From Verrucomicrobiota bacterium (lineage in GTDB: Bacteria; Verrucomicrobiota; Verrucomicrobiia; Opitutales; Cerasicoccaceae), in contig JBCBUK010000001.1 in assembly GCA_039818205.1 (NCBI GenBank), positions 32,001-96,000 on the forward strand: 64,000 nucleotides of DNA, in the 5' to 3' direction. Positions 9,422-22,286 of the stretch are shown one piece after another. Below the pieces are notes generated by a model, which ran no database searches, was not told where the DNA came from, and saw only the letters and a program-made list of their open reading frames with translations. A program made the position numbers and the translations under genes. Positions within the stretch are counted from its first letter, which is position 1, and each line of letters begins with the position of its first letter.

Positions 9422-10141
9422 ATGAAGCTAAAAAAACCCACCGCAGTCACCGTCAAGCGGGTGTTGATCGGAATTGCCGTCATCATCGCTCTACTCGTGG
9501 TGGGAGATCAGATTGCGCCGCACATCCCTGCGGCTGAGAAATGGATCCAGGATCAGGGAGTACTCGCTCCGGTGATCTACATCCTCTTGGTCTGCTTACT
9601 CACCTTGCTTTGTTTCCCGATGGACGTGCTTTTTGTCGCTGCCGGGATGATATTTGGCCTTTGGTGGGGGACCCTCTATCTGACAATCGCCACGACCGTT
9701 AGCCAAATGATTGTCTTCCTAGTATCGCGGTATCTGCTGCGGCATCGCGTCGAAAACTGGCTCGTTGACAATCAGAAAATGCGAATCCTGAACCGCGCTA
9801 TCGAACACAAAGGTGCCCAGCTTCTTTTTCTGATCCGGATGGCGCCCATCCCAGCATCGCCGGTCAGTTACTTGATGGGGGTTAGCTCCATGCGATTTGG
9901 GAAATTTGTATTGGCGAGCACAGGGCTCCTCCCAGTAGCATTTGCCTCCATGTATTTTGGCCATGCCGCGATCCATGCGATCGACGATGCAAATAACCCT
10001 AAGGCAAGCTTCGGATGGGACGATGCGTTGCTCTACATGGGCGCGTTCGCATCGATTATTGGGGTCGCCTACATTGGACACACCGCGCGCAACGCGATCA
10101 TCCGAGCCGAAAAGGAAGAAGCCGCCCTCGCCGAGACCTAA
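9422..10141 (+). CDS. TVP38/TMEM64 (DedA/VTT) family membrane protein
   Basis: AGMIFGLWWG, LIRMAPIP motifs, several TM helices. Confidence 0.87.
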   Translation: MKLKKPTAVTVKRVLIGIAVIIALLVVGDQIAPHIPAAEKWIQDQGVLAPVIYILLVCLLTLLCFPMDVLFVAAGMIFGLWWGTLYLTIATTVSQMIVFLVSRYLLRHRVENWLVDNQKMRILNRAIEHKGAQLLFLIRMAPIPASPVSYLMGVSSMRFGKFVLASTGLLPVAFASMYFGHAAIHAIDDANNPKASFGWDDALLYMGAFASIIGVAYIGHTARNAIIRAEKEEAALAET

Positions 10142-12717
10142 TTCTTCCGCTTCTCAAAGGGCTCAACCAGTTCCCAAAGCAGCGGATTATCACGGGCATC
10201 GTCAATATCTTCGAACATCGCCGTCGCCGCAGTTTTCAGTTCGAGATCCCGTTCCACGACTTGGGCCGTGTATTCCTTCCAATGCTGCCATGCCTCGCGA
10301 TAACGCTTTTCCAGGCGGTCAATCTCGCCCATCCAATAATATGCATAGACGGGCGGTTTATCGATTGCCAATAGGCGCTCCAGCGTCCATTTCGCCCCCT
10401 CTAGGTCTTGATTTTTCAATTGCTGATTGAGGAGCATGCCACCACGCACCACGTCGTCTGGCTGCGCGGCAAAGCGGACCCGTTGCTCATCAATGGGACG
10501 CCCTCCGAGGCTCTGCATCGCTGGGATCTGCGGCACCGGTACGTATTCCGCCGCCAACTCAATTGCCCCCGGAAAATTTCCCAGTTTGGCCATAGCGTTG
10601 GCTTGATAATACCAGGCATTGGGAATGCTATCGGGCGCAGACTCGAGAAAACGGATCAACGCGCCGGCGTCGCCACGGTCGAGCCACATCAACATGATAG
10701 CCTCACGCTCATCGCCCGAGAATTGGCTTAAGGTGGAGCTGCGACGCAGATCATCGCTCAATGCCTTAAGGAAATTCTTTCCCTGCAGGGATTCGAGATA
10801 CCGGGTTCGAAAAGCGCTCGAAGTTTGGCTGAGTCGATCCAGATCGCGAGAGAATCGCGGATTGCCGCTCGCGGTCAAAATGATCTTTTTGTAGACCTCT
10901 TGAGGATTGGTGGTTTGCCGGGTCAATGCGTCAGCCCAAGCTTCATAGGCGTAGTGGGTGCTTCTCCGCAGCCAGATTTCACCCTCATAAAGCGCCGGAT
11001 CAATCATTACAGGCTCAAGCAGCCGAGCTTTCCGGAAATCCTCTCGAGCCTCGGTCGTATCCCGTTCCAGGTAGAGCCGAGCCTTTCCACGGTAAAGATG
11101 TAATTGCCAGTCCAGCGGTAGAAAGTTCAACGCCACATCGAGGTCGTCCAGCACGGCATCAGCACTGCCCGCTTCAATCGCTGCATCAATCTGAACGGGG
11201 TAGACTTCCTTTACCACCGCGGTGTGCAGCATACTCTTCGTAGTATCCGCATAGACCCATACACCGCCTATGGCGAACAGAGCAATACCACCGAACCTCC
11301 AGATCCATGACGGAAACAAACAGTTAGCCTCAGATTTAAGGCGCGGCAAGGCGATCCGGTAAAGCCAAAGCGCGATGACTATAATGCCAAGCCGATGTGC
11401 CGAGACGTCAAAAAAGGAATGCAATAGGACGAGGGATAATGCGATCAAAGCACCGCTGCGAATTGGCGTCGAGGGGTCTCGTCCGAAGGGTAACATTAGC
11501 CAGTATAACAGGATGATCAGAGCGGCCACGACGGACATGCCGGGGACACCCAGCTCAGAGGCGACCCACAGCCAATCGCTTTCAGGATGGATAACGGGTT
11601 CAGGAGTCGCGGAGTGCTCCCGGTATTGGGGAAAAAGCACCGAAAAATTCCCAAGCCCAACGCCGGTAGCCGGTTGGTTCGCAATCATGTTGATTGAATC
11701 CGAATAGATCCGCCAACGCATGCTATCAAACACACTTTCATCGGCTTGAATCCAGTCCTGAACCCGGGACAAGGTCTGCTGGCCAGTGATCAGCATCAAA
11801 CCGAAACAAATCGCAGCCAATGGCGCAACAACCCGCAACGCACCGGCTTCTTTGCCGACACCAAAGTGAAAAATCGTCCATATGCCAGCGCCGATCACAA
11901 ACAGAATCAAACCGGCCTTCGAAAGACTCATCGAAACCGCCGTCGCCGCTGCGAAAAACGAGAATGCCGAAATCGCCACCCAGTACCACTTTGTTTGTCG
12001 ATTGTAGGCGATCAAAGCGAGGGAAACCACGCCGATCATCCCCATTAGGATCGATGTCTGGTTGCGGTTATCGAAATAGCTAAAGCTGGCAGCACGATCG
12101 GTTATTGGGTAATTGATGTCCTTCCAACTCCCATAAACCACTGCAAGGGCCAATAAGCCACCCAGGATCGAAAACAGTTGCAGCAAACGCCAACGATCCT
12201 TGCCCCGAAAACGGATGTTGATCAACAGGTAGAAAAAACCAATTCCGCCGCACATTAGCGCCAGCGCCTCGAGGGAACGAATCGGCTGCGCCGAGATCGT
12301 TGGCGGTAAGGCGATTCCAGCTCGATCGGCTGCAGTCCACCAATCTGGACGTCCGAACAAAATTCCAGGCAAAAAGCCGAACCAATCCGACGGTAAAAAG
12401 GCAATCAATCCAAGCCCCACCAAAGTCAACACCGTCCAATCCATCCGGCGATCCAAGGTTCGCTGAGGTGGGCGAAACGTCAAAACAGCACCCACCAGAA
12501 TCAGAAATGCTCCTTGAGACCAAATAAATTTGCCGCCGCCGCACAGCACCAGCACGACTAAGAATACGACAACCAAGAAGTTTCCAATCGCCGTGGGGCC
12601 GTCATTCATCGGAGGCTGGGGCTCCGAGGAAGCTTTGGCCCGTTTACGCGAAGAGGTCTTAGGCGACTTCGAGGAAGACGACGATCGGGAGCGCTTCGCT
12701 TTGGATTTTTCGGCCAT
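10138..12717 (-). CDS. O-antigen ligase/polymerase family protein with C-terminal TPR-like region
   Basis: Multi-TM N-half with NRNQ, R-W-R-I-Y, GVGLGNF, HPESDWL, LHSFFD; helical C-half; ATG 12717 chosen. Confidence 0.85.
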   Translation of the reverse strand: MAEKSKAKRSRSSSSSKSPKTSSRKRAKASSEPQPPMNDGPTAIGNFLVVVFLVVLVLCGGGKFIWSQGAFLILVGAVLTFRPPQRTLDRRMDWTVLTLVGLGLIAFLPSDWFGFLPGILFGRPDWWTAADRAGIALPPTISAQPIRSLEALALMCGGIGFFYLLINIRFRGKDRWRLLQLFSILGGLLALAVVYGSWKDINYPITDRAASFSYFDNRNQTSILMGMIGVVSLALIAYNRQTKWYWVAISAFSFFAAATAVSMSLSKAGLILFVIGAGIWTIFHFGVGKEAGALRVVAPLAAICFGLMLITGQQTLSRVQDWIQADESVFDSMRWRIYSDSINMIANQPATGVGLGNFSVLFPQYREHSATPEPVIHPESDWLWVASELGVPGMSVVAALIILLYWLMLPFGRDPSTPIRSGALIALSLVLLHSFFDVSAHRLGIIVIALWLYRIALPRLKSEANCLFPSWIWRFGGIALFAIGGVWVYADTTKSMLHTAVVKEVYPVQIDAAIEAGSADAVLDDLDVALNFLPLDWQLHLYRGKARLYLERDTTEAREDFRKARLLEPVMIDPALYEGEIWLRRSTHYAYEAWADALTRQTTNPQEVYKKIILTASGNPRFSRDLDRLSQTSSAFRTRYLESLQGKNFLKALSDDLRRSSTLSQFSGDEREAIMLMWLDRGDAGALIRFLESAPDSIPNAWYYQANAMAKLGNFPGAIELAAEYVPVPQIPAMQSLGGRPIDEQRVRFAAQPDDVVRGGMLLNQQLKNQDLEGAKWTLERLLAIDKPPVYAYYWMGEIDRLEKRYREAWQHWKEYTAQVVERDLELKTAATAMFEDIDDARDNPLLWELVEPFEKRKN

Positions 12718-12819
12718 GGAACGCGCCAGCTTTACACACCCGAGATTGTTGGCAATAGCCAACTTTCACTGGCAATCGCCAAACCAACCGCCTGAATCCG
12801 ATTTACGAATTTCGCAGGA

Positions 12820-14922
12820 TTAACCCGACATCGCCGTTAGCTCGGGATCCTTTTTGGTTTTCGGACGATAGTTGTAGTAGTCGTGATACTTGTTGTAGTA
12901 ATAGTAGTGGCTGGTCCGCTTGGTATCGACGAAGTTTAGGACGAATCCGTCGACCGCCATACCGCGAAGCTCAAGTACATCCAGCGAACTCTTTATCTGG
13001 GCTGAACGCGTATAATTAGACCGGACCATAAACAAGATGGCGTCGGCATTTGAAGCAAAGCTCGGGGTGTCGTCAGTCGCGAGGACTGGCGGGCAGTCAA
13101 AAATGATATAATCATAGCGATCACGCATCTCCTCGAGCAACGAATTGAAGCGCTTACTCAGGAGCATTTCCCCAGGACGCTCCGGGTAATCTCCACAAGG
13201 GAGAACATCCAGGTCCTTCGTCTCGGATTTTTGAACGACATCATCCAGCGTTAAATCTTCGTTCTCGATGAGCTCGGCGAAGCCAGGAGACGGCTCGATA
13301 CCAAACTCCGTATGGACGCGACCGCGACGCAAATCAGCATCTACGAGCAAGGTCTTTGAATGGGCAAAGGCCAAGGTGATACCGAGGTTACTCGAGAGCG
13401 TCGACTTGCCCTCAGCGGGAACCGCACTCGTCAACAGAATGACTTGAGGACGATTTCCATCATGATCCATAAAGAGCAACGATGATCGAATATTTCGACA
13501 CGACTCGGCAAACATCACCCGATCATCTCCGGCCTGCAACAGCCCGATCCGGGACGATCCTTTAATCGTTGGCTGAAGCGGGATCACGCCCAGAACCGGC
13601 GGATCAAAGCGTGTGGTGAGATCCTCAGCGGAAACCACTCGGGTATCCAAAACGGAAACCAATACCAAGATACCGACACCGAATACTAGACCAATGACAC
13701 CGCCGAGAATGATGTTCTTATTGCGCTCACTTGGCACTTGGAACGCCTTTGAGGCGGGTTGTAAGATCGATATCGTTTCCTGGTGTGTATTCTTGGTGAT
13801 ATCGAGTGACTCGATCGATGCCAGCAGGCGATCGTGGACTTTCTTAGCACTGTCCAGGCGAGAATTTATGCGATCGAATTCGGCCAAAAGTGTGCTGAAT
13901 TTCAGCGCTTTAGTTTCCCATTCCGAAATGAGTTCATCCAAGTTGGCCAGCTCTGCTTCGAGCTTCTTCTCGCGCTCTTCCAACTGACCCAAAGTTTGCC
14001 GACGATAGATCTTCAAAAGGTTTTCTTGCCGCTCGATTTCCTGGTTCAATCGCTTGATCCGCGGATGCGCTGGCTTCATATATATCGAGAACTCGGCACG
14101 CTCGGCCTTAAGCGCCTCAACTTCACGTTTTGTCTCATCGTAATTGGAGTCGGCTCCACTCAACTGAGACTCAGTCAGCGCGTTTTGGCTTGAGCCGGAT
14201 CCATGAGAATATTCGCTAATGTTTTCGAGAAGTCGAATCTCTCGTTTCATCCGCGCACGATCGTTATTGAGTGCCGCAAGATAGGTACCAGCGTTGTTCC
14301 CCTGCTCTGTGATAAAAACTATGTTGTTCTCCTTTTGGAAATTCAAACGATCCTCTTCTAACTCCTCGATTTCCTCTTGTTTCTCGAGCGCTTTGACCAT
14401 GATCGTGTTGAACGTTCTCTCCGTGGTCATCGTCCGGCGGTCCGACTTAAACAGCAGGAACTCGTGCATCATGGCATCAAGATACGCCTGGACGTATTGC
14501 GGTTCGGTTCCGACTGCCTCGAGCTCGAACGCACTGGCATCGTCGACCTGTCGGATTCCAACAGCAACCGGTATGCGCTTCAACTCAGGATGAAGCGCAG
14601 CAACCCGCTGGATCGCCTTTTGCCGAACTGGCTGGCTCTGCATGAATTTGATCTGCGTGCCAAAGAAATTGAGAAAGACCTCTTGATATCGTGCACCTTC
14701 AGGAATGGTCACTTGACCATCAATCACCATCTCCGCTCGCGACTGATACATCGGCTCCTTCAGCGATTCATTGTACCATTGAATCGATACACCGACTGCC
14801 ACACAAATAATCAGGACCCACCAAAGGCGGGATACGAGCATGCGTGCGCGAAAGTAGACGGATCTGATCAAGTCAGACCATTCAAAATTGCCTTCGTTTT
14901 CGTCTATGCCGGGGTGCGCCAT
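12820..14922 (-). CDS. wzc: Polysaccharide co-polymerase / BY-kinase (Wzc-like)
   Basis: Two TMs around a coiled coil, Walker A (PAEGKS), DADLRR, IFDCPP, Tyr-rich tail HYYYYNKYHDYYNY. Confidence 0.9.
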   Translation of the reverse strand: MAHPGIDENEGNFEWSDLIRSVYFRARMLVSRLWWVLIICVAVGVSIQWYNESLKEPMYQSRAEMVIDGQVTIPEGARYQEVFLNFFGTQIKFMQSQPVRQKAIQRVAALHPELKRIPVAVGIRQVDDASAFELEAVGTEPQYVQAYLDAMMHEFLLFKSDRRTMTTERTFNTIMVKALEKQEEIEELEEDRLNFQKENNIVFITEQGNNAGTYLAALNNDRARMKREIRLLENISEYSHGSGSSQNALTESQLSGADSNYDETKREVEALKAERAEFSIYMKPAHPRIKRLNQEIERQENLLKIYRRQTLGQLEEREKKLEAELANLDELISEWETKALKFSTLLAEFDRINSRLDSAKKVHDRLLASIESLDITKNTHQETISILQPASKAFQVPSERNKNIILGGVIGLVFGVGILVLVSVLDTRVVSAEDLTTRFDPPVLGVIPLQPTIKGSSRIGLLQAGDDRVMFAESCRNIRSSLLFMDHDGNRPQVILLTSAVPAEGKSTLSSNLGITLAFAHSKTLLVDADLRRGRVHTEFGIEPSPGFAELIENEDLTLDDVVQKSETKDLDVLPCGDYPERPGEMLLSKRFNSLLEEMRDRYDYIIFDCPPVLATDDTPSFASNADAILFMVRSNYTRSAQIKSSLDVLELRGMAVDGFVLNFVDTKRTSHYYYYNKYHDYYNYRPKTKKDPELTAMSG

Positions 14923-14925
14923 CGA

Positions 14926-15915
14926 TTAAAAGCTAATGAATTTTTCCGGTACAATTATCCGGTCGCCGGACTGAATCTGAACATCCATTTCCTGCTGACC
15001 TTCTTCCAAAATCTCGTCCACGTCTATCTCCAGCTCTGTGCGGACACCCGCTTCGTCGTGCCGGATCAACTTAACGGAACCACCGTTCGCAAATTGTGCA
15101 AACCCGCCTGCTCCGAGAATCGCCTGGCTGATCGCAATCTTCTGCCCTACCGATATAGGATACACTCCAGGGGCGCGGACCGCACCGGAAACAATATACT
15201 GTCCGCTGGTGTCACCACGCTGGCTCACAAATACGCGATCATTGGCTTTCACGATCAAATCCTGATCCAAGCGTCCAGTCTCCATAATCTTCGACACGTT
15301 GAGGTCGAAACGTTCGGATGACTCTGGATTCTTTACGTCAGGACGAACCAGAAGCACGCGTGACGCATCCGACAATCGTGTGAAACCGCCTGCTCGAATA
15401 ATCGCTCCGCTAACTCTCAGGATTTCTCCTGAAGGAATCTGAATAGCACCCGCATTATTGACCTCGCCCATTACGTAGACGATACCGCGGCTCCCGGTAT
15501 CTTGATGAGGCTCGATGATAACGGTTGCCTGATAATAGTATTCCTCTCTCAAACGCTCACTGATTTCCAGCGCTAGCTTCTGTAAAGTCTGACCCGCTGC
15601 CTGAACATTACCGACCAGAGGAATCGACATTTCGCCATCCTCATCGACCAATAGAACTTCTGGCGGGATGCGGTCTTCGATAACACGATACTCTAATTGT
15701 TCACCCACCTCGATGATGGCTGTGCTATCAAGCTCAAGCATCGCGTTGAGCGAATCGTCCGCATTAACCGGTGGTGCGGGAGCGCGAAATTTTGGCTCGG
15801 GTTCGACAACTAGGGCACTGCCAGGCACGTCTGCAACCGGAGCCTGAGACTCCGCTAACTCCTGTCCGTGCGCGACCGATATGCCAAATAGGCAAAGCGC
15901 TAACCTAAAAATCAT
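14926..15915 (-). CDS. wza: Polysaccharide export protein (Wza-like, SLBB repeats)
   Basis: DGEMSIPLVG poly-export motif and two SLBB repeats (AGGF); ATG 15915 overlaps upstream stop. Confidence 0.85.
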   Translation of the reverse strand: MIFRLALCLFGISVAHGQELAESQAPVADVPGSALVVEPEPKFRAPAPPVNADDSLNAMLELDSTAIIEVGEQLEYRVIEDRIPPEVLLVDEDGEMSIPLVGNVQAAGQTLQKLALEISERLREEYYYQATVIIEPHQDTGSRGIVYVMGEVNNAGAIQIPSGEILRVSGAIIRAGGFTRLSDASRVLLVRPDVKNPESSERFDLNVSKIMETGRLDQDLIVKANDRVFVSQRGDTSGQYIVSGAVRAPGVYPISVGQKIAISQAILGAGGFAQFANGGSVKLIRHDEAGVRTELEIDVDEILEEGQQEMDVQIQSGDRIIVPEKFISF

Positions 15916-17143
15916 AGCGTAGCCCCAAGAGCACTCGGTTCCTGTAGTAAGACCGATTGAATAGGTTGGAGCTTTTGTGACTGAAATCATAGTCTAGACT
16001 GGCGGTAAACTTACTAGAGAGTTGGTAATCTACACCGATTCCGAAGCCATATCGACCATAATCTTCTGGTAGAAGTCCCCCTGAATCGGCACCGAGCTCA
16101 TAATAAGCCCGTCCCCGAGGTGTTAATCGGCTATTCATCCGCCAATTAAAGCCATAGGCTACGGAAAAAAGTGAGGTTACGTTAGAAAGATACCCATAAT
16201 TAAAGCTGTGACCAGCGGTTAGGGAATGTTCAAAATTGCCTGAAGCCCGGTGGTTAACGGTGAACGAGCCAACGATACCTGCCGGATTTGTGTCGTCTTG
16301 GTTTAGTGCTCCTTCTTGAAAAATGTAATCCTGATAGGCGATATTTCCCGCGAAGCTCAGGTTCTCCGTCGCCTGCCAAATCGCCATTGGGCCTATAGAC
16401 CAGCTCCAGCTGTCATTGTTCACGTCGTCATTGTAAAAATTCCAGGCCATCGTTCCGGTAACCCCTAGCGTCAAATTCGGCGCAACCAGAAAACGAGGAC
16501 CACCCTCCAATAGATAAGCATGCCGTTGGGTGTAATCGAAAGCCGAAGATGTGGGGATAATATCTAGCCGACTAAGGCCTGCATAAAAAATGATATCGTT
16601 TAGGTCCCAATCCAAATCGACCCCCACCTGATTGACGAAACGGCCATAATCGAGCGGATTGTTGCTGACGACCCCACCTTGAATCGCAAACGCGTCCGTT
16701 GCATCAACCGAATAGGAGAGTCGCTCGTAAAACTCCATCGTCACGTCGTCAATAAAGACCGTGAATGAGAGCTCAGTATCTGGACTGATGTTGAGGAAAT
16801 TATTGATCGAATCGAGCTCTGGCGTACGCAGGTACTTGTTGTAGCCGATACCAACACTAACGCTTAGCGTATTGAGCTCGGAGAATTGATACCGACCCGC
16901 AAGCACGACTCCCGGCCGCAAAATGATGTCCCATCGCGGGTTAAACTCGGCGTAGTTAATATTGTCATCGTAAATGATGTCAAAAGTCGCAGCTAAATCA
17001 AAACGGAAGCCGCCGACCTTGAAATTTTCGCCTTGGCCCTGCGCTGAACTCCCAAGCGACATTACCAGCATTAACAGACCGACCCCAACGCATCGGAGGC
17101 GAAAGTCCTTAGAAGATCGAAAAATGTAGCCTAAAAAACCCAC
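15905..17143 (-). CDS. Outer-membrane beta-barrel protein of EPS export locus
   Basis: Signal peptide, YDDNI start motif, alternating aromatic beta-strands, C-terminal …GLRYDF BAM signature; first gene of wza-wzc operon. Confidence 0.8.
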   Translation of the reverse strand: MGFLGYIFRSSKDFRLRCVGVGLLMLVMSLGSSAQGQGENFKVGGFRFDLAATFDIIYDDNINYAEFNPRWDIILRPGVVLAGRYQFSELNTLSVSVGIGYNKYLRTPELDSINNFLNISPDTELSFTVFIDDVTMEFYERLSYSVDATDAFAIQGGVVSNNPLDYGRFVNQVGVDLDWDLNDIIFYAGLSRLDIIPTSSAFDYTQRHAYLLEGGPRFLVAPNLTLGVTGTMAWNFYNDDVNNDSWSWSIGPMAIWQATENLSFAGNIAYQDYIFQEGALNQDDTNPAGIVGSFTVNHRASGNFEHSLTAGHSFNYGYLSNVTSLFSVAYGFNWRMNSRLTPRGRAYYELGADSGGLLPEDYGRYGFGIGVDYQLSSKFTASLDYDFSHKSSNLFNRSYYRNRVLLGLRYDF

Positions 17144-17321
17144 GGAAATTTATTGATTATAAAGAATCGTTAAGCATTAGTTCCAAAGATGCAAATTTTT
17201 CTTAATGCATCCCCTTCCAACACCGTTCTAGTAATGGTATACTTTTGAGATTCCTTTACGGCGTTTTTCACTATAGGTTTAGCGAGAATTAGCATAGCTT
17301 TCTTAAACGACTGCGACAAAT

Positions 17322-18788
17322 ATGTATTTCCACCAAACGATCAAGTTAACTCTTTGCGGCTTCCTGTTGAGTTTCACAACAGTAACCCTGTCCGCGAATA
17401 CGGATGCGACTTCACCCAATCCTGATAGTGAGGAGGCCATCAGTTTATTGGAAGTGCCGGAGCTTACTCAGGAGGAACTTTTAGACAAGCAAAAGAACCT
17501 CGCACGTTGGCATATGAATGCCGTCATGTATGACGCTTCCGCAGACTTCCTGAATCCAATTACCTGGGAGGAGACTGACAGCACCGAAAGTCTCGGGGCG
17601 CTGATGACCGACGACCCGACCGCTGCTTTCTCCGCTCCAGTAGGAATTTCTCGATTCGTCATCGATCTGAGTGATTTCTACATTATCGATCGGTTCAACT
17701 TCAAAAATTTTACGGCAGTTGGCTCAGTTCAACTCTTCTATTCGGATTCATTGAATACGCCAGATGCCAAGAGCTGGGTGGCAGTCGACGACCCGCAAAG
17801 CTTTGATAGTGAAGCCGTCCTTAGCCCAACGTTTACGCCGTTTGAGAGTCGTTACCTGATGGTCTTGTTAGACATCACACAGCCCGGGGACATCGGAAAC
17901 ATGGGCGCATTTGGCAATCTTTCACTCGCGGAGGTCAAGCTAGGAGCCAACAAGCGCGACGAAGATATCGCAGTGGACACCTCGGCCAAAACCAACGCGA
18001 AGCCAGTAAAGTTTAATTACGCATCCGCCGGAGCCGACTCCCGCGTGACCTACGTTAGCTCGGGCGTTGCGGGAGAGGCCAATTCCATGATCGATGACGA
18101 TGTCGAGTCGTTCTACGATTTCGAGGGCGGTGACGAGGAAAGCATCGTGATTGTCGACTTGGGCGAACAGCGCGAGGTCAATCGCGTTTCGATGCTATTC
18201 GATTCTCCTCCTGGCGAGTTCGATTTCTTTATCGTCAACAAACTCCCTGACGACGTTCAAAAGGCAATTGATGATGCCGAGACAGGCTCCAATGCCACTA
18301 ACAGCAATGGGAGCCTATCGAAGCCGGCAGACGACGATATGGCCATGATTTACAACAATGGTCGCCTCGAGCCTCTTCTTCTGGCCCAGAACGGCGGTGG
18401 GGACGCAATTGGTTCCATCGTTAGCTTTACCGCCGACGCCATTTTCAACACCGTGCAATTGCCGGCTGGTTTCTTTTCCAGCCTGACGCCTACGGTTCAA
18501 GAAGCGGTCACCGGATCCGACGAACGTTTTCGCCTGGACTTCTCTAATTTGAGCGGACGCTTTCTCATCGTTCGCTTCACACCGTCGCCTGGAAGCCCGG
18601 GTGGCTTGCGGGTCTATGAAATCAGCCTAATGGGAGACGTGTCTGCCGACGACGAACACTGGACTCGGTTGCCTATCTTTCAGTTGATTGGAGGCGGTTC
18701 GCCTCTTGGTGATGCGCCAACTAAGGCACTGTCAACGAGCGCACCTCCGCCAAATGTTCGCCCGCTGCCCCCACCTCTCAGCCCATAG
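17322..18788 (+). CDS. Secreted protein with two discoidin/CBM32-like domains and Pro-rich C-terminus
   Basis: Signal peptide; FVIDLS…SRYLMV and IVIVDLGEQREVNRV…GRFLIVRF…LRVYEI patterns. Confidence 0.6.
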   Translation: MYFHQTIKLTLCGFLLSFTTVTLSANTDATSPNPDSEEAISLLEVPELTQEELLDKQKNLARWHMNAVMYDASADFLNPITWEETDSTESLGALMTDDPTAAFSAPVGISRFVIDLSDFYIIDRFNFKNFTAVGSVQLFYSDSLNTPDAKSWVAVDDPQSFDSEAVLSPTFTPFESRYLMVLLDITQPGDIGNMGAFGNLSLAEVKLGANKRDEDIAVDTSAKTNAKPVKFNYASAGADSRVTYVSSGVAGEANSMIDDDVESFYDFEGGDEESIVIVDLGEQREVNRVSMLFDSPPGEFDFFIVNKLPDDVQKAIDDAETGSNATNSNGSLSKPADDDMAMIYNNGRLEPLLLAQNGGGDAIGSIVSFTADAIFNTVQLPAGFFSSLTPTVQEAVTGSDERFRLDFSNLSGRFLIVRFTPSPGSPGGLRVYEISLMGDVSADDEHWTRLPIFQLIGGGSPLGDAPTKALSTSAPPPNVRPLPPPLSP

Positions 18789-18817
18789 AGAGGCGCAGAT
18801 TTAGTGCGATTTTCAGG

Positions 18818-20320
18818 TCACTTACTGAACTCCGCGTACTTCTTTACGGTTCGACGATCGATCTCCAAACGCCGACCAAGCTCTTCGTAGTTCGGCGTCT
18901 TCTCGTACTGCAAGCTGACATAGCGGGCCATGAGTTCATTCGCCGTCAACTTACCCATCTGGATTTCTAATGCCAGTGCGCTGGCTGGGCTACTCTGATC
19001 AGGATTACCAAGCGGTTGCGGCAGATACTCGCCGTGAACCAGAATATTTCGCACGCATTGCTCGAGCTCTCGAAAGTTACCCGGCCAGGGATAGTCCACC
19101 GACAAGTCTCGGGCGATGACCTCCATTACCTCCCCGGTGAAGGTAGGCGCTTCGTCGGCACCGACAAACTTACGTGCGATGTGGGAAACCAAATTTTCGA
19201 GCTCTTCGGGTGATTCCCGCAGAATCTCGCGCAAGGATGGTGTCCGAACATGGTCTGCATTCAGTCGAAAATAAAAGTCCTCTCGGAACCGCCCGGCTTC
19301 AATTTCAGCCAGCAGGTCACGATTCGTCGCGGCCATGATTTTCCCGCGAAACGAATGCATCTCGGTGTCTCCGATCGGGGCAAACGTGCGGGTTTGCAAT
19401 AGGCGCAACAGCTTTACTTGGATGCTTGGTTCGGTCTCGCCGATCTCGTCGAGAAAGACGGTTCCATGGTCACCACAAACTGAAAGATAGCCCGCGCGAT
19501 CGTGGAGAGCGCCCGTAAATGCGCCCTTCTTGTGACCAAAAAGTTCGGATTCGATCAAACTGGATGACAAAGCCGAGAGATTGATCGGATAGAAGGCTTT
19601 AACAAAGTCCTCCTCAAACTCACGAGTATTGGGGTTGAACGGAATAAACCGGCTCAAGCCAATTGCTCGGGCAACGAGTTCCTTACCCGTTCCGGAGGGC
19701 CCGGTAATTAAGGTGATGATGTCCCCCATCCGATCTGCCAGCACGCGCTGATACCGGTCCATATTGTGGGTAAAAATCGACTGCCAGATTCGGGCCCTCA
19801 GTTTGGTAGCCGCCGGCGAACCTCCAATTATGTATTGATAGATATGCTGGAAGGCGCGCCGAACCTGGAAAAACACACCGAAGAGGCGCGTTTCCTCCAT
19901 GGCTTCATATTCGCCCACAAACCCCATTGGCAGCCAATAGCGCACTTCTTGGCAAAAACGGTCATAGAATGGGATTCGCTGCGCGGCGCTTCCCCGAGCA
20001 TGCCCCGCCTCAATAACTTTGTCGAAGTCGCGACGGAACTGGTGAAAGACATGGAAGAAGACGAGCTCTTGATAAAGAAAGGCGTCCCGCTGATTGGCTT
20101 CCTTGCCAGGATCCCAACGTTCACGGGCAGCATCGATCGTTTTTTCCAGGAGGGCCAATATCGCGGCTAAATCTGACTTTTCCTCACCGCGACCACCCTG
20201 TGATTCAAGAATTTCTCGCTCAAGTTCGTAGCGAGCCGTGTCGAAGGGGTTCATCCAGACTAACCGGGCTAAACGTTGGGCCAATGGCCGTTCTGCAGGA
20301 TTAAAAAGGCGAATACCCAT
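18818..20320 (-). CDS. Sigma-54 dependent enhancer-binding transcriptional activator
   Basis: GPSGTGKE Walker A, ESELFGHKKGAFTGA, FLDEIG, FREDFYFRL, WPGNFREL, C-terminal HTH; ATG 20320 preferred. Confidence 0.93.
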   Translation of the reverse strand: MGIRLFNPAERPLAQRLARLVWMNPFDTARYELEREILESQGGRGEEKSDLAAILALLEKTIDAARERWDPGKEANQRDAFLYQELVFFHVFHQFRRDFDKVIEAGHARGSAAQRIPFYDRFCQEVRYWLPMGFVGEYEAMEETRLFGVFFQVRRAFQHIYQYIIGGSPAATKLRARIWQSIFTHNMDRYQRVLADRMGDIITLITGPSGTGKELVARAIGLSRFIPFNPNTREFEEDFVKAFYPINLSALSSSLIESELFGHKKGAFTGALHDRAGYLSVCGDHGTVFLDEIGETEPSIQVKLLRLLQTRTFAPIGDTEMHSFRGKIMAATNRDLLAEIEAGRFREDFYFRLNADHVRTPSLREILRESPEELENLVSHIARKFVGADEAPTFTGEVMEVIARDLSVDYPWPGNFRELEQCVRNILVHGEYLPQPLGNPDQSSPASALALEIQMGKLTANELMARYVSLQYEKTPNYEELGRRLEIDRRTVKKYAEFSK

Positions 20321-20336
20321 GTGCAATTTATGCACA
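20320..20336. promoter_or_regulatory. Candidate upstream activator (enhancer) site
   Basis: Perfect palindrome TGTGCA-ATTTA-TGCACA about 135-150 bp upstream of the predicted sigma-54 start site, abutting the activator's ATG. Confidence 0.6.
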
Positions 20337-20443
20337 GGCCTGACATCAAACGTCAACCGCAAAGCTCGATATCAACACTTCGAAGAATTCTAAATTTTCT
20401 TTAATCTCTACATAGCATATACTTACATATTTTCTATCAAAAT

Positions 20444-20459
20444 TGGCACGCAGCGAGCA
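20444..20459 (+). promoter_or_regulatory. Sigma-54 (-24/-12) promoter
   Basis: TGGCACG-CAGC-GAGCA with exact GG-N10-GC spacing, divergent from a GAFTGA activator. Confidence 0.8.
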
Positions 20460-20471
20460 TTAATGTCCGAC

Positions 20472-20597
20472 ATGAAACACACTCAACCAAGAAAAGAACC
20501 TCCAACTCGCTTCTGCGATGCGCCCGGCGCCCTCACTTTCCTCGCGTTCGCCTTCTTCGCGACCGTCACCGCAATGCTCAAATACAGCATCGTTTAA
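20472..20597 (+). CDS. Micro-protein 1 (41 aa, single TM)
   Basis: MKHTQPRKEPPTRFCDAPGALTFLAFAFFATVTAMLKYSIV; not in ORF track. Confidence 0.6.
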   Translation: MKHTQPRKEPPTRFCDAPGALTFLAFAFFATVTAMLKYSIV

Positions 20598-20616
20598 TCC
20601 AAAAGTTCGCCAACCC

Positions 20617-20808
20617 ATGACTCATACCAACCAAGCACCCTTTTTGCCTCGGATGAATACAAAGCCCAGCCTGTCGTTAAATTCCGAGAAACGCGGCTTC
20701 AAGCGCGCACTCGTTGGCCTGGCTCTACTAACCCTGGCAATCGCACCGATCGCCTACCTCGGCGCAAGATTCTTTAAACACTACGCAACCCTTAGCAACT
20801 GGAACTAA
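20617..20808 (+). CDS. Micro-protein 2 (63 aa, single TM)
   Basis: MTHTNQAPF…KRGFKRALVGLALLTLAIAPIAYLGARFFKHYATLSNWN; internal ATG of track ORF 20518. Confidence 0.65.
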   Translation: MTHTNQAPFLPRMNTKPSLSLNSEKRGFKRALVGLALLTLAIAPIAYLGARFFKHYATLSNWN

Positions 20809-20812
20809 ACCC

Positions 20813-20992
20813 ATGCGAAAGACAGAAAACTCACCCGCAAAACGACCTGCAACCATGAAAGCCAAGCAAGCATCGGCCGTCATCGCTGAACCATCGCCGC
20901 TGGAGCAGTTGCTCTACTGCTCGATCATCTTGGTCGCCGCGACTCCGTTTGCGATCATCGGTCTGGGACGACTCATCAACGCCTGGTTCTAA
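20813..20992 (+). CDS. Micro-protein 3 (59 aa, single TM)
   Basis: MRKTENSPAKRPATMKAKQASAVIAEPSPLEQLLYCSIILVAATPFAIIGLGRLINAWF; 4 nt after previous stop; not in ORF track. Confidence 0.65.
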   Translation: MRKTENSPAKRPATMKAKQASAVIAEPSPLEQLLYCSIILVAATPFAIIGLGRLINAWF

Positions 20993-21014
20993 CCGCATCC
21001 AACATAGTCCCGAT

Positions 21015-21191
21015 ATGAACAACTCAATACCCTCCGACGACTCAGGTTCCAAAAAAGGATTTTCGATCTATCGGCACATCATACGCCCGGCACTCCTTAC
21101 AACGGCTGCGCTAGCCGTAGGATGCGCCGCTTTTATCGGATTATTTGTTCTTGGAATCGTAACCGGCCCAATCGAGCTTTGGCCCATGTAA
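21015..21191 (+). CDS. Micro-protein 4 (58 aa, single TM)
   Basis: MNNSIPSDDSGSKKGFSIYRHIIRPALLTTAALAVGCAAFIGLFVLGIVTGPIELWPM. Confidence 0.65.
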   Translation: MNNSIPSDDSGSKKGFSIYRHIIRPALLTTAALAVGCAAFIGLFVLGIVTGPIELWPM

Positions 21192-21232
21192 CAATTCCTC
21201 TCCGCACACCAACCAATCAATTTCCAAATCTC

Positions 21233-21328
21233 ATGAAAATCATTCTCACCCTTCTAGCCGCCATTCCAACGGCCCTTTCGACTTACGTCTTCTTGGCGAT
21301 CAGTGGCATTGTCAACTGGCCTGGATAA
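21233..21328 (+). CDS. Micro-protein 5 (31 aa, hydrophobic)
   Basis: MKIILTLLAAIPTALSTYVFLAISGIVNWPG. Confidence 0.55.
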   Translation: MKIILTLLAAIPTALSTYVFLAISGIVNWPG

Positions 21329-21364
21329 ACAACAAAGCCCACCCCAAAAGAGGAGTGAGCTTTG
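21329..21364 (-). terminator. Intrinsic terminator after HAD gene
   Basis: Minus-strand stem CAAAGCUCACUCC/GGGGUGGGCUUUG (G-U pairs work only on minus) followed by UUGUUU. Confidence 0.55.
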
Positions 21365-21383
21365 CAGCAAAAAGTAAAGGCGG

Positions 21384-22286
21384 CTAGGCGATGCAGCCAG
21401 CAACTTGCTCCAACTCAGTGATGATCAAATCAGGCTTCACGTCCTTGCAATCAGCATCGTCTTCGCGCAAACGCAATGAGCGCTTGTCGCCCGCGAATAG
21501 TGCGGTTTTGAAGCCGAGTTCCTGCGCTGGCCAGACATCGTTGCGGATATCGTTGCCAATGAAAAGCGTCTCTTCCGGAGTGATGCCGTCGAGGGCCTGC
21601 ATGCGCTCCATTGCTACCTTATAGATATCGTGTCCCGGCTTGGCGGTGGCATGCTCGTAGGAGTAAACGCAGAGCACTTCCTCAATACCCAGGTCGTGCG
21701 GACCGTCTTCGAAGAACGCTTCGAAAAGCAACGGTGTAAAGGCCTGAGCATTCGAGATCAGCCCAATACTCTTCCCCTTATCGAGGCAGCTTTCAAAGGC
21801 ATCGAGCACGCCGGGCATCGGATAAACGGGGTTCACACGAGCCTCGAATAATGAAGCAAGCTGCATCAAGTTGTTGCGTGTCGTGCGGCCACGAACGAGC
21901 TCATAAGCTTCTAGCTGGCCGATGAGGTCTTCCCACACGCCGATGATGTCGACCTCGGGAAAATTCGTTCCGTTGTCGCGGCGAATATCTTGCTCAGCCT
22001 TGATGGTGTCCAGGAAGAGCTCATTGATTGGCGTTTTTTCATCCAGGAGCATAAAGCCGACCTCTTCCATCGACTGGCGGATCAGCTTTTCGCGCTCCTT
22101 ACTCTTGTCATTAGTGACCAGGGAAATATCGCCCACTCCGCTTTGAAACAACGTTCCATAGATGTCGAATAAAACGCAGCGAATGCCTTTGAGAGGACTG
22201 ATCTTCGGCTCCACACCAGTGGGCACCGGAGCCATCTCAGGTGAATTGTGTCTAATAATATCAACGGGTTTCAGCTTATAAGCCAT
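21384..22286 (-). CDS. HAD-superfamily hydrolase
   Basis: FDIYGTL, ISNA, KP, IGNDIRND motifs; ATG 22286 preferred. Confidence 0.85.
   Translation of the reverse strand: MAYKLKPVDIIRHNSPEMAPVPTGVEPKISPLKGIRCVLFDIYGTLFQSGVGDISLVTNDKSKEREKLIRQSMEEVGFMLLDEKTPINELFLDTIKAEQDIRRDNGTNFPEVDIIGVWEDLIGQLEAYELVRGRTTRNNLMQLASLFEARVNPVYPMPGVLDAFESCLDKGKSIGLISNAQAFTPLLFEAFFEDGPHDLGIEEVLCVYSYEHATAKPGHDIYKVAMERMQALDGITPEETLFIGNDIRNDVWPAQELGFKTALFAGDKRSLRLREDDADCKDVKPDLIITELEQVAGCIA

Follow-up and report, generated by a model that had tools for sequence, protein, structure and literature searches.

A divergent sigma-54 activator with a predicted paired enhancer and five single-helix micro-proteins in a marine verrucomicrobial genome: candidate for a second, Psp-like membrane-stress regulon

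Organization of the locus and its activator

We analyzed a 64,000-nt stretch of DNA, referred to as the window, from a marine Verrucomicrobiota bacterium (Cerasicoccaceae; GCA_039818205.1, JBCBUK010000001.1:32,001-96,000). It contains an activator gene, a divergent promoter and, behind the latter, five short ORFs separated by gaps of 19, 4, 22 and 41 nt (Table 1). An earlier note on this DNA had described a GAFTGA-type activator on the minus strand, a correctly spaced -24/-12 promoter facing away from it and five tightly packed ORFs; all three elements were recovered as described, including the lengths of the ORFs. The distance from the -24/-12 box to the activator gene is identical in relatives, and the genome contains an RpoN-box motif. 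The A+T-rich spacer in front of the box is a probable DNA-bending region. Terminator-like on the minus strand, the hairpin at the far end may serve both the ORF5 side and the HAD gene.

Table 1 Features of the locus and of its predicted targets elsewhere in the genome
Feature	Position	Strand	Basis
Sigma-54 activator, 500 aa	18818..20320	-	Pfam/NCBIfam, AF2 model
Predicted enhancer site 1, palindrome, CAT-N3-ATG core type, adjoining the activator start codon	20321..20335		Matrix from 25 orthologous promoters
Predicted enhancer site 2, 20 bp from site 1	20341..20355		Promoter matrix
A+T-rich spacer (74%)	20365..20442		Base composition
-24/-12 sigma-54 promoter, box TTGGCACGCAGCGAGCA	20443..20459	+	GG/GC spacing correct
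ORF1, 41 aa, single helix, near-leaderless	20472..20597	+	Conserved in relatives
ORF2, 63 aa (51 aa if from 20653), C-terminal NWN	20617..20808	+	No homologue found
ORF3, 59 aa (45 aa if from 20855), C-terminal AWF	20813..20992	+	No homologue found
ORF4, 58 aa, C-terminal LWPM, weakest coding signal	21015..21191	+	No homologue found
ORF5, 31 aa, C-terminal NWPG	21233..21328	+	No homologue across five genomes of the genus
Hairpin between ORF5 and the convergent HAD gene	21332..21365		Fold -13.6 kcal/mol, z only -1.5
aas operon: Aas-type acyltransferase/AMP-binding protein and alpha/beta hydrolase (lipase)	G000:C4:103095		Enhancer and box
PspA/IM30 paralogue and DUF2157-like protein	G000:C14:14862		Enhancer and box

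Run X1 is letter-identical to the window over 18700-21283, with no variants, and may represent the same strain. Its contig joins 21379(-) to 21263(+) at an inverted repeat of 9-12 bp and leaves 21311-21378 uncovered; this joint (window 21254-21387) fits an inversion that would swap the C-terminus of ORF5, or a fold-back artefact of the library. A plasmid search and an initial metagenome scan gave no match. A DNA search of 31 relatives yielded only a 34-bp match at the start of the activator and a weak one of 23 bp. Elsewhere in the window, positions 10138-18788 hold what reads as a polysaccharide-export-like cluster (chain-length/kinase, export and outer-membrane proteins), as well as a gene for a secreted protein of 488 aa whose F5/8 type C match is weak.

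The activator starts at the methionine at 20320 and not at the TTG at 20362, as close relatives align from 20320. Its hallmark as a sigma-54 bacterial enhancer-binding protein (bEBP) is a Sigma54_activat AAA+ domain (PF00158, E=9.5e-45) with an intact GAFTGA motif; the corresponding DNA elements and partner, an enhancer lying roughly 100-150 bp ahead of a -24/-12 box and RpoN in the genome, were found at the motif level only. The AF2 model (pLDDT 89.6) consists of an all-helical N-terminal domain (residues ~1-160), the AAA+ domain and C-terminal helices that probably form an HTH. The protein reached no cut-off of the curated bEBP models in NCBIfam, and its N-terminal domain matched no named family; the nearest cluster in the Atlas has 241 members and no Pfam family, and fold searches with the model were filled by matches of the AAA+ domain. 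Compared with PspF of the same genome, the AAA+ domain carries two insertions, one of about 15 and one of about 12 residues; the latter sits at the loop that holds a tryptophan of PspF, presumably W56. The W56 loop of PspF has been described as the site for PspA (PMC6003685). The nearest named activators belong to Cerasicoccus species (85-86% identity), and the family was present in 15 of 16 genomes of the family, 104 of 401 of the order and 76 of 401 of the phylum.

The paired enhancer and its predicted targets

Promoters of orthologous activator loci have two palindromes in common, with the consensus ATACATTAAATGTAT and 20-22 bp apart, and this pair begins 98-126 bp upstream of the box. When we scored enhancer plus box with a matrix built from 25 orthologous promoters, from which the window was left out, the array promoter reached 45.0 compared to 22.2 for the next best of 7769 candidates in the genome. 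Comparison across genomes ties the activator to a pair of palindromic enhancer sites that lie 100-145 bp ahead of a -24/-12 box, and the two-site element at 20321-20355, which activator orthologues share, is put forward here as a new candidate enhancer. Among 154 distinct loci of the activator for which 500 nt or more of upstream sequence exist, training loci included, 80 carry both promoter and enhancer, and 74 are without a divergent promoter. Matching promoter geometry was also seen at 38 of 73 activator loci from metagenomes (80 loci, of which 7 were dropped for short upstream sequence). Counted from the first ORF, 65 of the 80 loci with promoter and enhancer have no small helix ORF, 12 have one, 2 have two and a single locus, the window alone, has five.

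The earlier note had proposed a dedicated sigma-54 regulon made only of micro-proteins. At the tight spacing of 20-23 bp, the array promoter is indeed the only strong match in the genome. However, the promoters of the aas operon and of the PspA paralogue operon emerge once the spacing is relaxed to 30 bp, and their orthologues mostly have the enhancer pair near -136/-115 with the standard spacing of 20-22 bp. A site is furthermore located at -122/-123 of a yebB-like gene, here and in all three relatives that hold the gene. The recurrence of the enhancer before the PspA paralogue, the aas-lipase operon and the yebB-like gene contradicts a regulon restricted to micro-proteins, which we regard as the least probable of the explanations considered.

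In a free-spacing scan of 576 stronger sigma-54-like boxes, the aas and PspA paralogue promoters ranked second and third, respectively. Both are independent of the matrix training, and so are their orthologues. Two-site scores exceeded the 99th percentile of the 576-box set (14.0) in 9 of 10 orthologues of the PspA paralogue promoter and 12 of 16 of the aas promoter, counts that overstate certainty because kin genomes are not independent. The five misses comprise L135, L148 and L154, each with one good site, the truncated L158, and L159. Motif matches at C17, C28 and C20 were set aside, as they lie inside or away from gene starts or overlap an upstream gene. A further motif-bearing promoter stands before genes read as a membrane protein and a radical-SAM-like protein in L166 (G405:C4).

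Since the enhancer of the activator recurs before an unlinked PspA paralogue operon, a PspA-family protein would take part in the predicted system in trans. This paralogue was not found in 6 of the 16 family genomes. Its partner resembles DUF2157 at E=1e-6, under the Pfam cut-off. The canonical pspF-pspA-pspC locus is separate (G000:C2:553441-555843), and its pspA promoter is without the enhancer motif (best score 2.6). A third PspA-like gene is located at C9:180935-181600. The DUF2157-like partner (L130:1193-2593, L282-L289) has an invariant SS[YF][LI]ER motif, a basic amphipathic tail and a tryptophan at -2 in nine of nine copies; this tail probably lies on the other side of the membrane than the C-terminal tryptophan of the micro-proteins.

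In other lineages, the activator faces a VIT-vWA protein with a rhombosortase or rhombotarget lipoprotein, or DUF2157/DUF2339 proteins. Further facing genes, assigned by reading translations rather than by a family scan, are Aas/LplT-like, lipase plus YebB-like, and NfeD/band-7-like. As the facing genes match the predicted targets in trans, the same gene types seem to be placed in cis or in trans depending on the genome. The VIT-vWA/rhombosortase cassette was not found in the genome under study. At L008 and L097, the activator is faced by a pair of small membrane ORFs, of which the second has a sigma-54 box of its own. L009, L092 and L103 have a HAD-like gene apparently directly upstream of the activator and no array, like the window minus an insert, and in the metagenomes the activator often faces another recurring cassette of genes (L217, L236, L238, L253, L259).

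The micro-protein array

ORF1 differs from the other four ORFs in its conservation. A homologue directly follows the same promoter in all 11 genomes from the two nearest genera, and these copies are also the rows of the ORF1 profile. Most of these relatives have an RFxD motif, the helix and then LE[YW]G. In the ORF1 core, pS exceeded pN in both groups (0.69 against 0.33 and 0.51 against 0.19), a substitution pattern indicating that ORF1 is under purifying selection; the check for selection on the reading frame that the earlier note had called for came out in favor of this ORF. The copy in the window is the most diverged. In relatives, the ATG of ORF1 is 28-29 nt from the start of the box, which, given standard sigma-54 geometry, places it at most about 3 nt from the predicted transcript start and favors the start at 20472 over that at 20463. 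Profile searches returned 12 proteins from one library, with Cerasicoccus and Ruficoccus as the sources of the named ones, and 10 from another, one of them a spurious repeat protein. In the second of the two genera (L006, L007, L043-L045), the activator-ORF1 pair lies directly upstream of a gene read as MreB-like.

These properties raise the question of whether ORF1 acts as a feedback regulator of the activator, as a membrane anchor or anti-activator, instead of as an effector. Its single copy remains beside the activator in all 11 genomes while the genes beyond change, and a conserved basic/RFxD patch is on the predicted cytoplasmic side. However, the ORF1 profile had no strong match in the other 390 genomes searched, many of which have the activator, and the ancestral occupant of the ORF1 position is a secreted VIT-vWA protein, so that we consider a feedback role unlikely. 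A predicted complex of activator and ORF1 scored 0.00 and was counted neither for nor against it. Two genomes retain the activator and both trans targets without ORF1, which suggests that the peptides are dispensable for the regulon.

Each of ORFs 1-5 encodes one hydrophobic segment of 19 aa (KD 1.8-2.6), in agreement with the single helix per micro-protein that had been noted before. Because basic residues precede the segment, an N-in topology is suggested for all five products. Tryptophan occurs in the last three residues of 93 of 2850 long ORFs and of 9 of 183 with a C-terminal helix, compared to four of the five array ORFs (post-hoc P ~3e-5), so this feature of the earlier description also stands. 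In dinucleotide shuffles, none of 3000 reached even two ORFs of the chain of four formed by ORFs 2-5, and 56 gave one; in the 4.85 Mb genome, ORFs 2-5 are the only chain of at least three. The array is not a product of chance.

The synteny analysis gave a divided outcome, with conservation of the activator and ORF1, whereas ORFs 2-5 were found in this genome only. For ORFs 2-5, no homologue was found in five genomes of the genus (best E 0.08) or at the HAD orthologue loci of relatives. A large protein search with ORF2 and ORF4 returned the query itself or nothing, the Atlas matches of ORF3 were all under 0.9, and the exact sequences of ORF4 and ORF5 are absent from the protein collection. NCBI annotates ORFs 1-3 as singleton proteins, ORF2 with the start at 20653. 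None of the five matched Pfam or NCBIfam, including PspB, PspC and PspG; ORF3 resembles PufQ at E=0.012, under the cut-off. Mutual sequence similarity did not support a common paralogous origin of ORFs 1-5 (best of 10 pairs p 0.028; profile probabilities 0.3-3.3%). A match of ORF1 to the long DUF2157-like profile (nominal p 0.01, 1.8 bits) was taken as noise. ORF4 has weak similarity to the initial helix of a long membrane protein encoded close to a PstS-like gene (G000:C14:23963; E=0.024; ends WP), which is possibly mimicry or chance.

Without homologues and with a weak ORF4, ORFs 2-5 might be untranslated or remnants of a decayed membrane-protein gene. Their arrangement, four separate ATG-to-stop units in three frames that each have a polar head and one helix, argues against this, as does the outcome of the shuffles. 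The genome seldom uses Shine-Dalgarno sequences (7% of 333 starts). ORFs 2, 3 and 5 have starts that suit its A-rich context and outscore 99% of internal ATGs. Among the six frames, the in-frame codon score ranks first for ORFs 2-5 and second for ORF1; the synonymous codon score of ORF4 is negative. The idea that the ORFs are copies of the C-terminal helix of the DUF2157-like partner was likewise dropped, as they do not match its C-terminal profile. We consider decay or lack of translation very improbable.

Type I toxins are of similar size, have a single helix and are usually translationally locked. ORFs 2-5 might accordingly be a recently gained toxin, defence or competition cassette behind a stress promoter, given their restriction to one genome, their lack of homologues, their common C-terminal tryptophan and their toxin-like size and helix. 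Yet their base composition (G+C 52%, GC3 0.51-0.65) fits the genome, no family was matched, no repeats hint at a mobile unit, and the start regions are unstructured in the two tested, in contrast to the usual locked translation. This origin is quite improbable in our assessment, and no support was obtained for the toxin or phage-receptor roles that the earlier note had considered. Judged by sequence criteria, the five-gene array is genuine and so far unique to one genome, and by analogy the micro-proteins probably serve as an effector cassette specific to this lineage.

Proposed regulon and comparison with known systems

Overall, our sequence comparisons suggest a second, Psp-like membrane-stress regulon under sigma-54, with the activator as its master switch and the array as one output, a reading we hold to be probable. 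The activator, its motif and the regulon are a stronger result than the five-gene array. bEBPs bind enhancers, loop the DNA and open promoters at the expense of ATP. By this logic, membrane or lipid damage would switch on the activator through its helical N-terminal domain; it would then bind both enhancer sites, loop across the A+T-rich spacer and open the promoter, while site 1 would allow it to damp its own gene. Damage of this kind is the presumed trigger because the predicted targets reacylate or hydrolyse lipids, Aas being a lysophospholipid repair enzyme, and a PspA-family protein is among them. Some activators occur without ORF1 and some without the PspA paralogue, which makes the N-terminal domain the likeliest sensor. 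The envelope-stress theme that the earlier note had listed for the sigma-54 unit finds support in the same predicted targets.

One near-leaderless transcript (~20470-21365) would give rise to five N-in, single-pass inner-membrane proteins. By analogy, we favor an effector role, in which they might act non-enzymatically, like PspG in the PspF regulon, by binding or stabilising membrane partners during repair. ORF1 would be the old member and ORFs 2-5 recent additions with a common C-terminal tryptophan. More tentatively, and with some doubt on our side, a widespread family of one-component activators might directly read lipid damage, such as lysophospholipid or free acyl chains, via a new helical domain and run a repair regulon parallel to Psp, the slot behind its own promoter serving as a nursery for single-helix effectors with a C-terminal tryptophan signal.

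This work provides a defined activator family, a predicted binding motif and a target list. It ties the orphan cassettes VIT-vWA/rhombosortase, DUF2157, Aas/LplT and YebB-like to one predicted stress response, which is testable in named cultured relatives, and it places one conserved small-protein family without a Pfam match and four genome-specific small proteins in a known regulatory setting. In the main texts of the open-access literature, we found no description of the activator, the motif or the peptides; such loci may be present in the supplementary tables of PMC11237479 and PMC12316311. Outside Proteobacteria, Psp systems are described as poorly characterised (PMC11237479), and Verrucomicrobia do not appear in the main text of either Psp survey.

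The micro-proteins share their size and single helix with several well-known small proteins. AcrZ and MgtS are single-helix small regulators, and Hok and TisB are type I toxins. Unlike these, the five proteins have no sequence match to them and are unrelated members of a tandem behind a sigma-54 box. The best NCBIfam match of the activator is RtcR, in the AAA+ part only, but it amounts to 201 bits against the NF038308 cut-off of 650 and begins at residue 203. Rhombosortase/GlyGly-CTERM cassettes with VIT-vWA targets, the usual neighbor of the activator in other Verrucomicrobiota, are known from PMC3237569, which in the portion available to us names no activator for them. The pairing of a PspA homologue with a DUF2157-type membrane protein is reminiscent of the Lia system of Bacillus (LiaIH, LiaFSR; PMC11237479), although the predicted control here is by a one-component sigma-54 activator and not by a two-component system.

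The closest likeness of layout is to PspF and pspABCDE-pspG, the precedent drawn by the earlier note. In contrast to PspF, the activator has an extra N-terminal domain of 160 aa, two AAA+ insertions and a different enhancer, and it scores 134 against the TIGR02974 cut-off of 444; the micro-proteins are without similarity to PspB or PspC, and a canonical pspF-pspA-pspC locus is present elsewhere in the genome. As in the PspF system, however, a divergent sigma-54 activator is combined with small membrane proteins, a PspA-family member and unlinked targets (PMC9239133, PMC11237479), and the control of a PspA-family gene, here predicted from the motif and in trans, supports the analogy.
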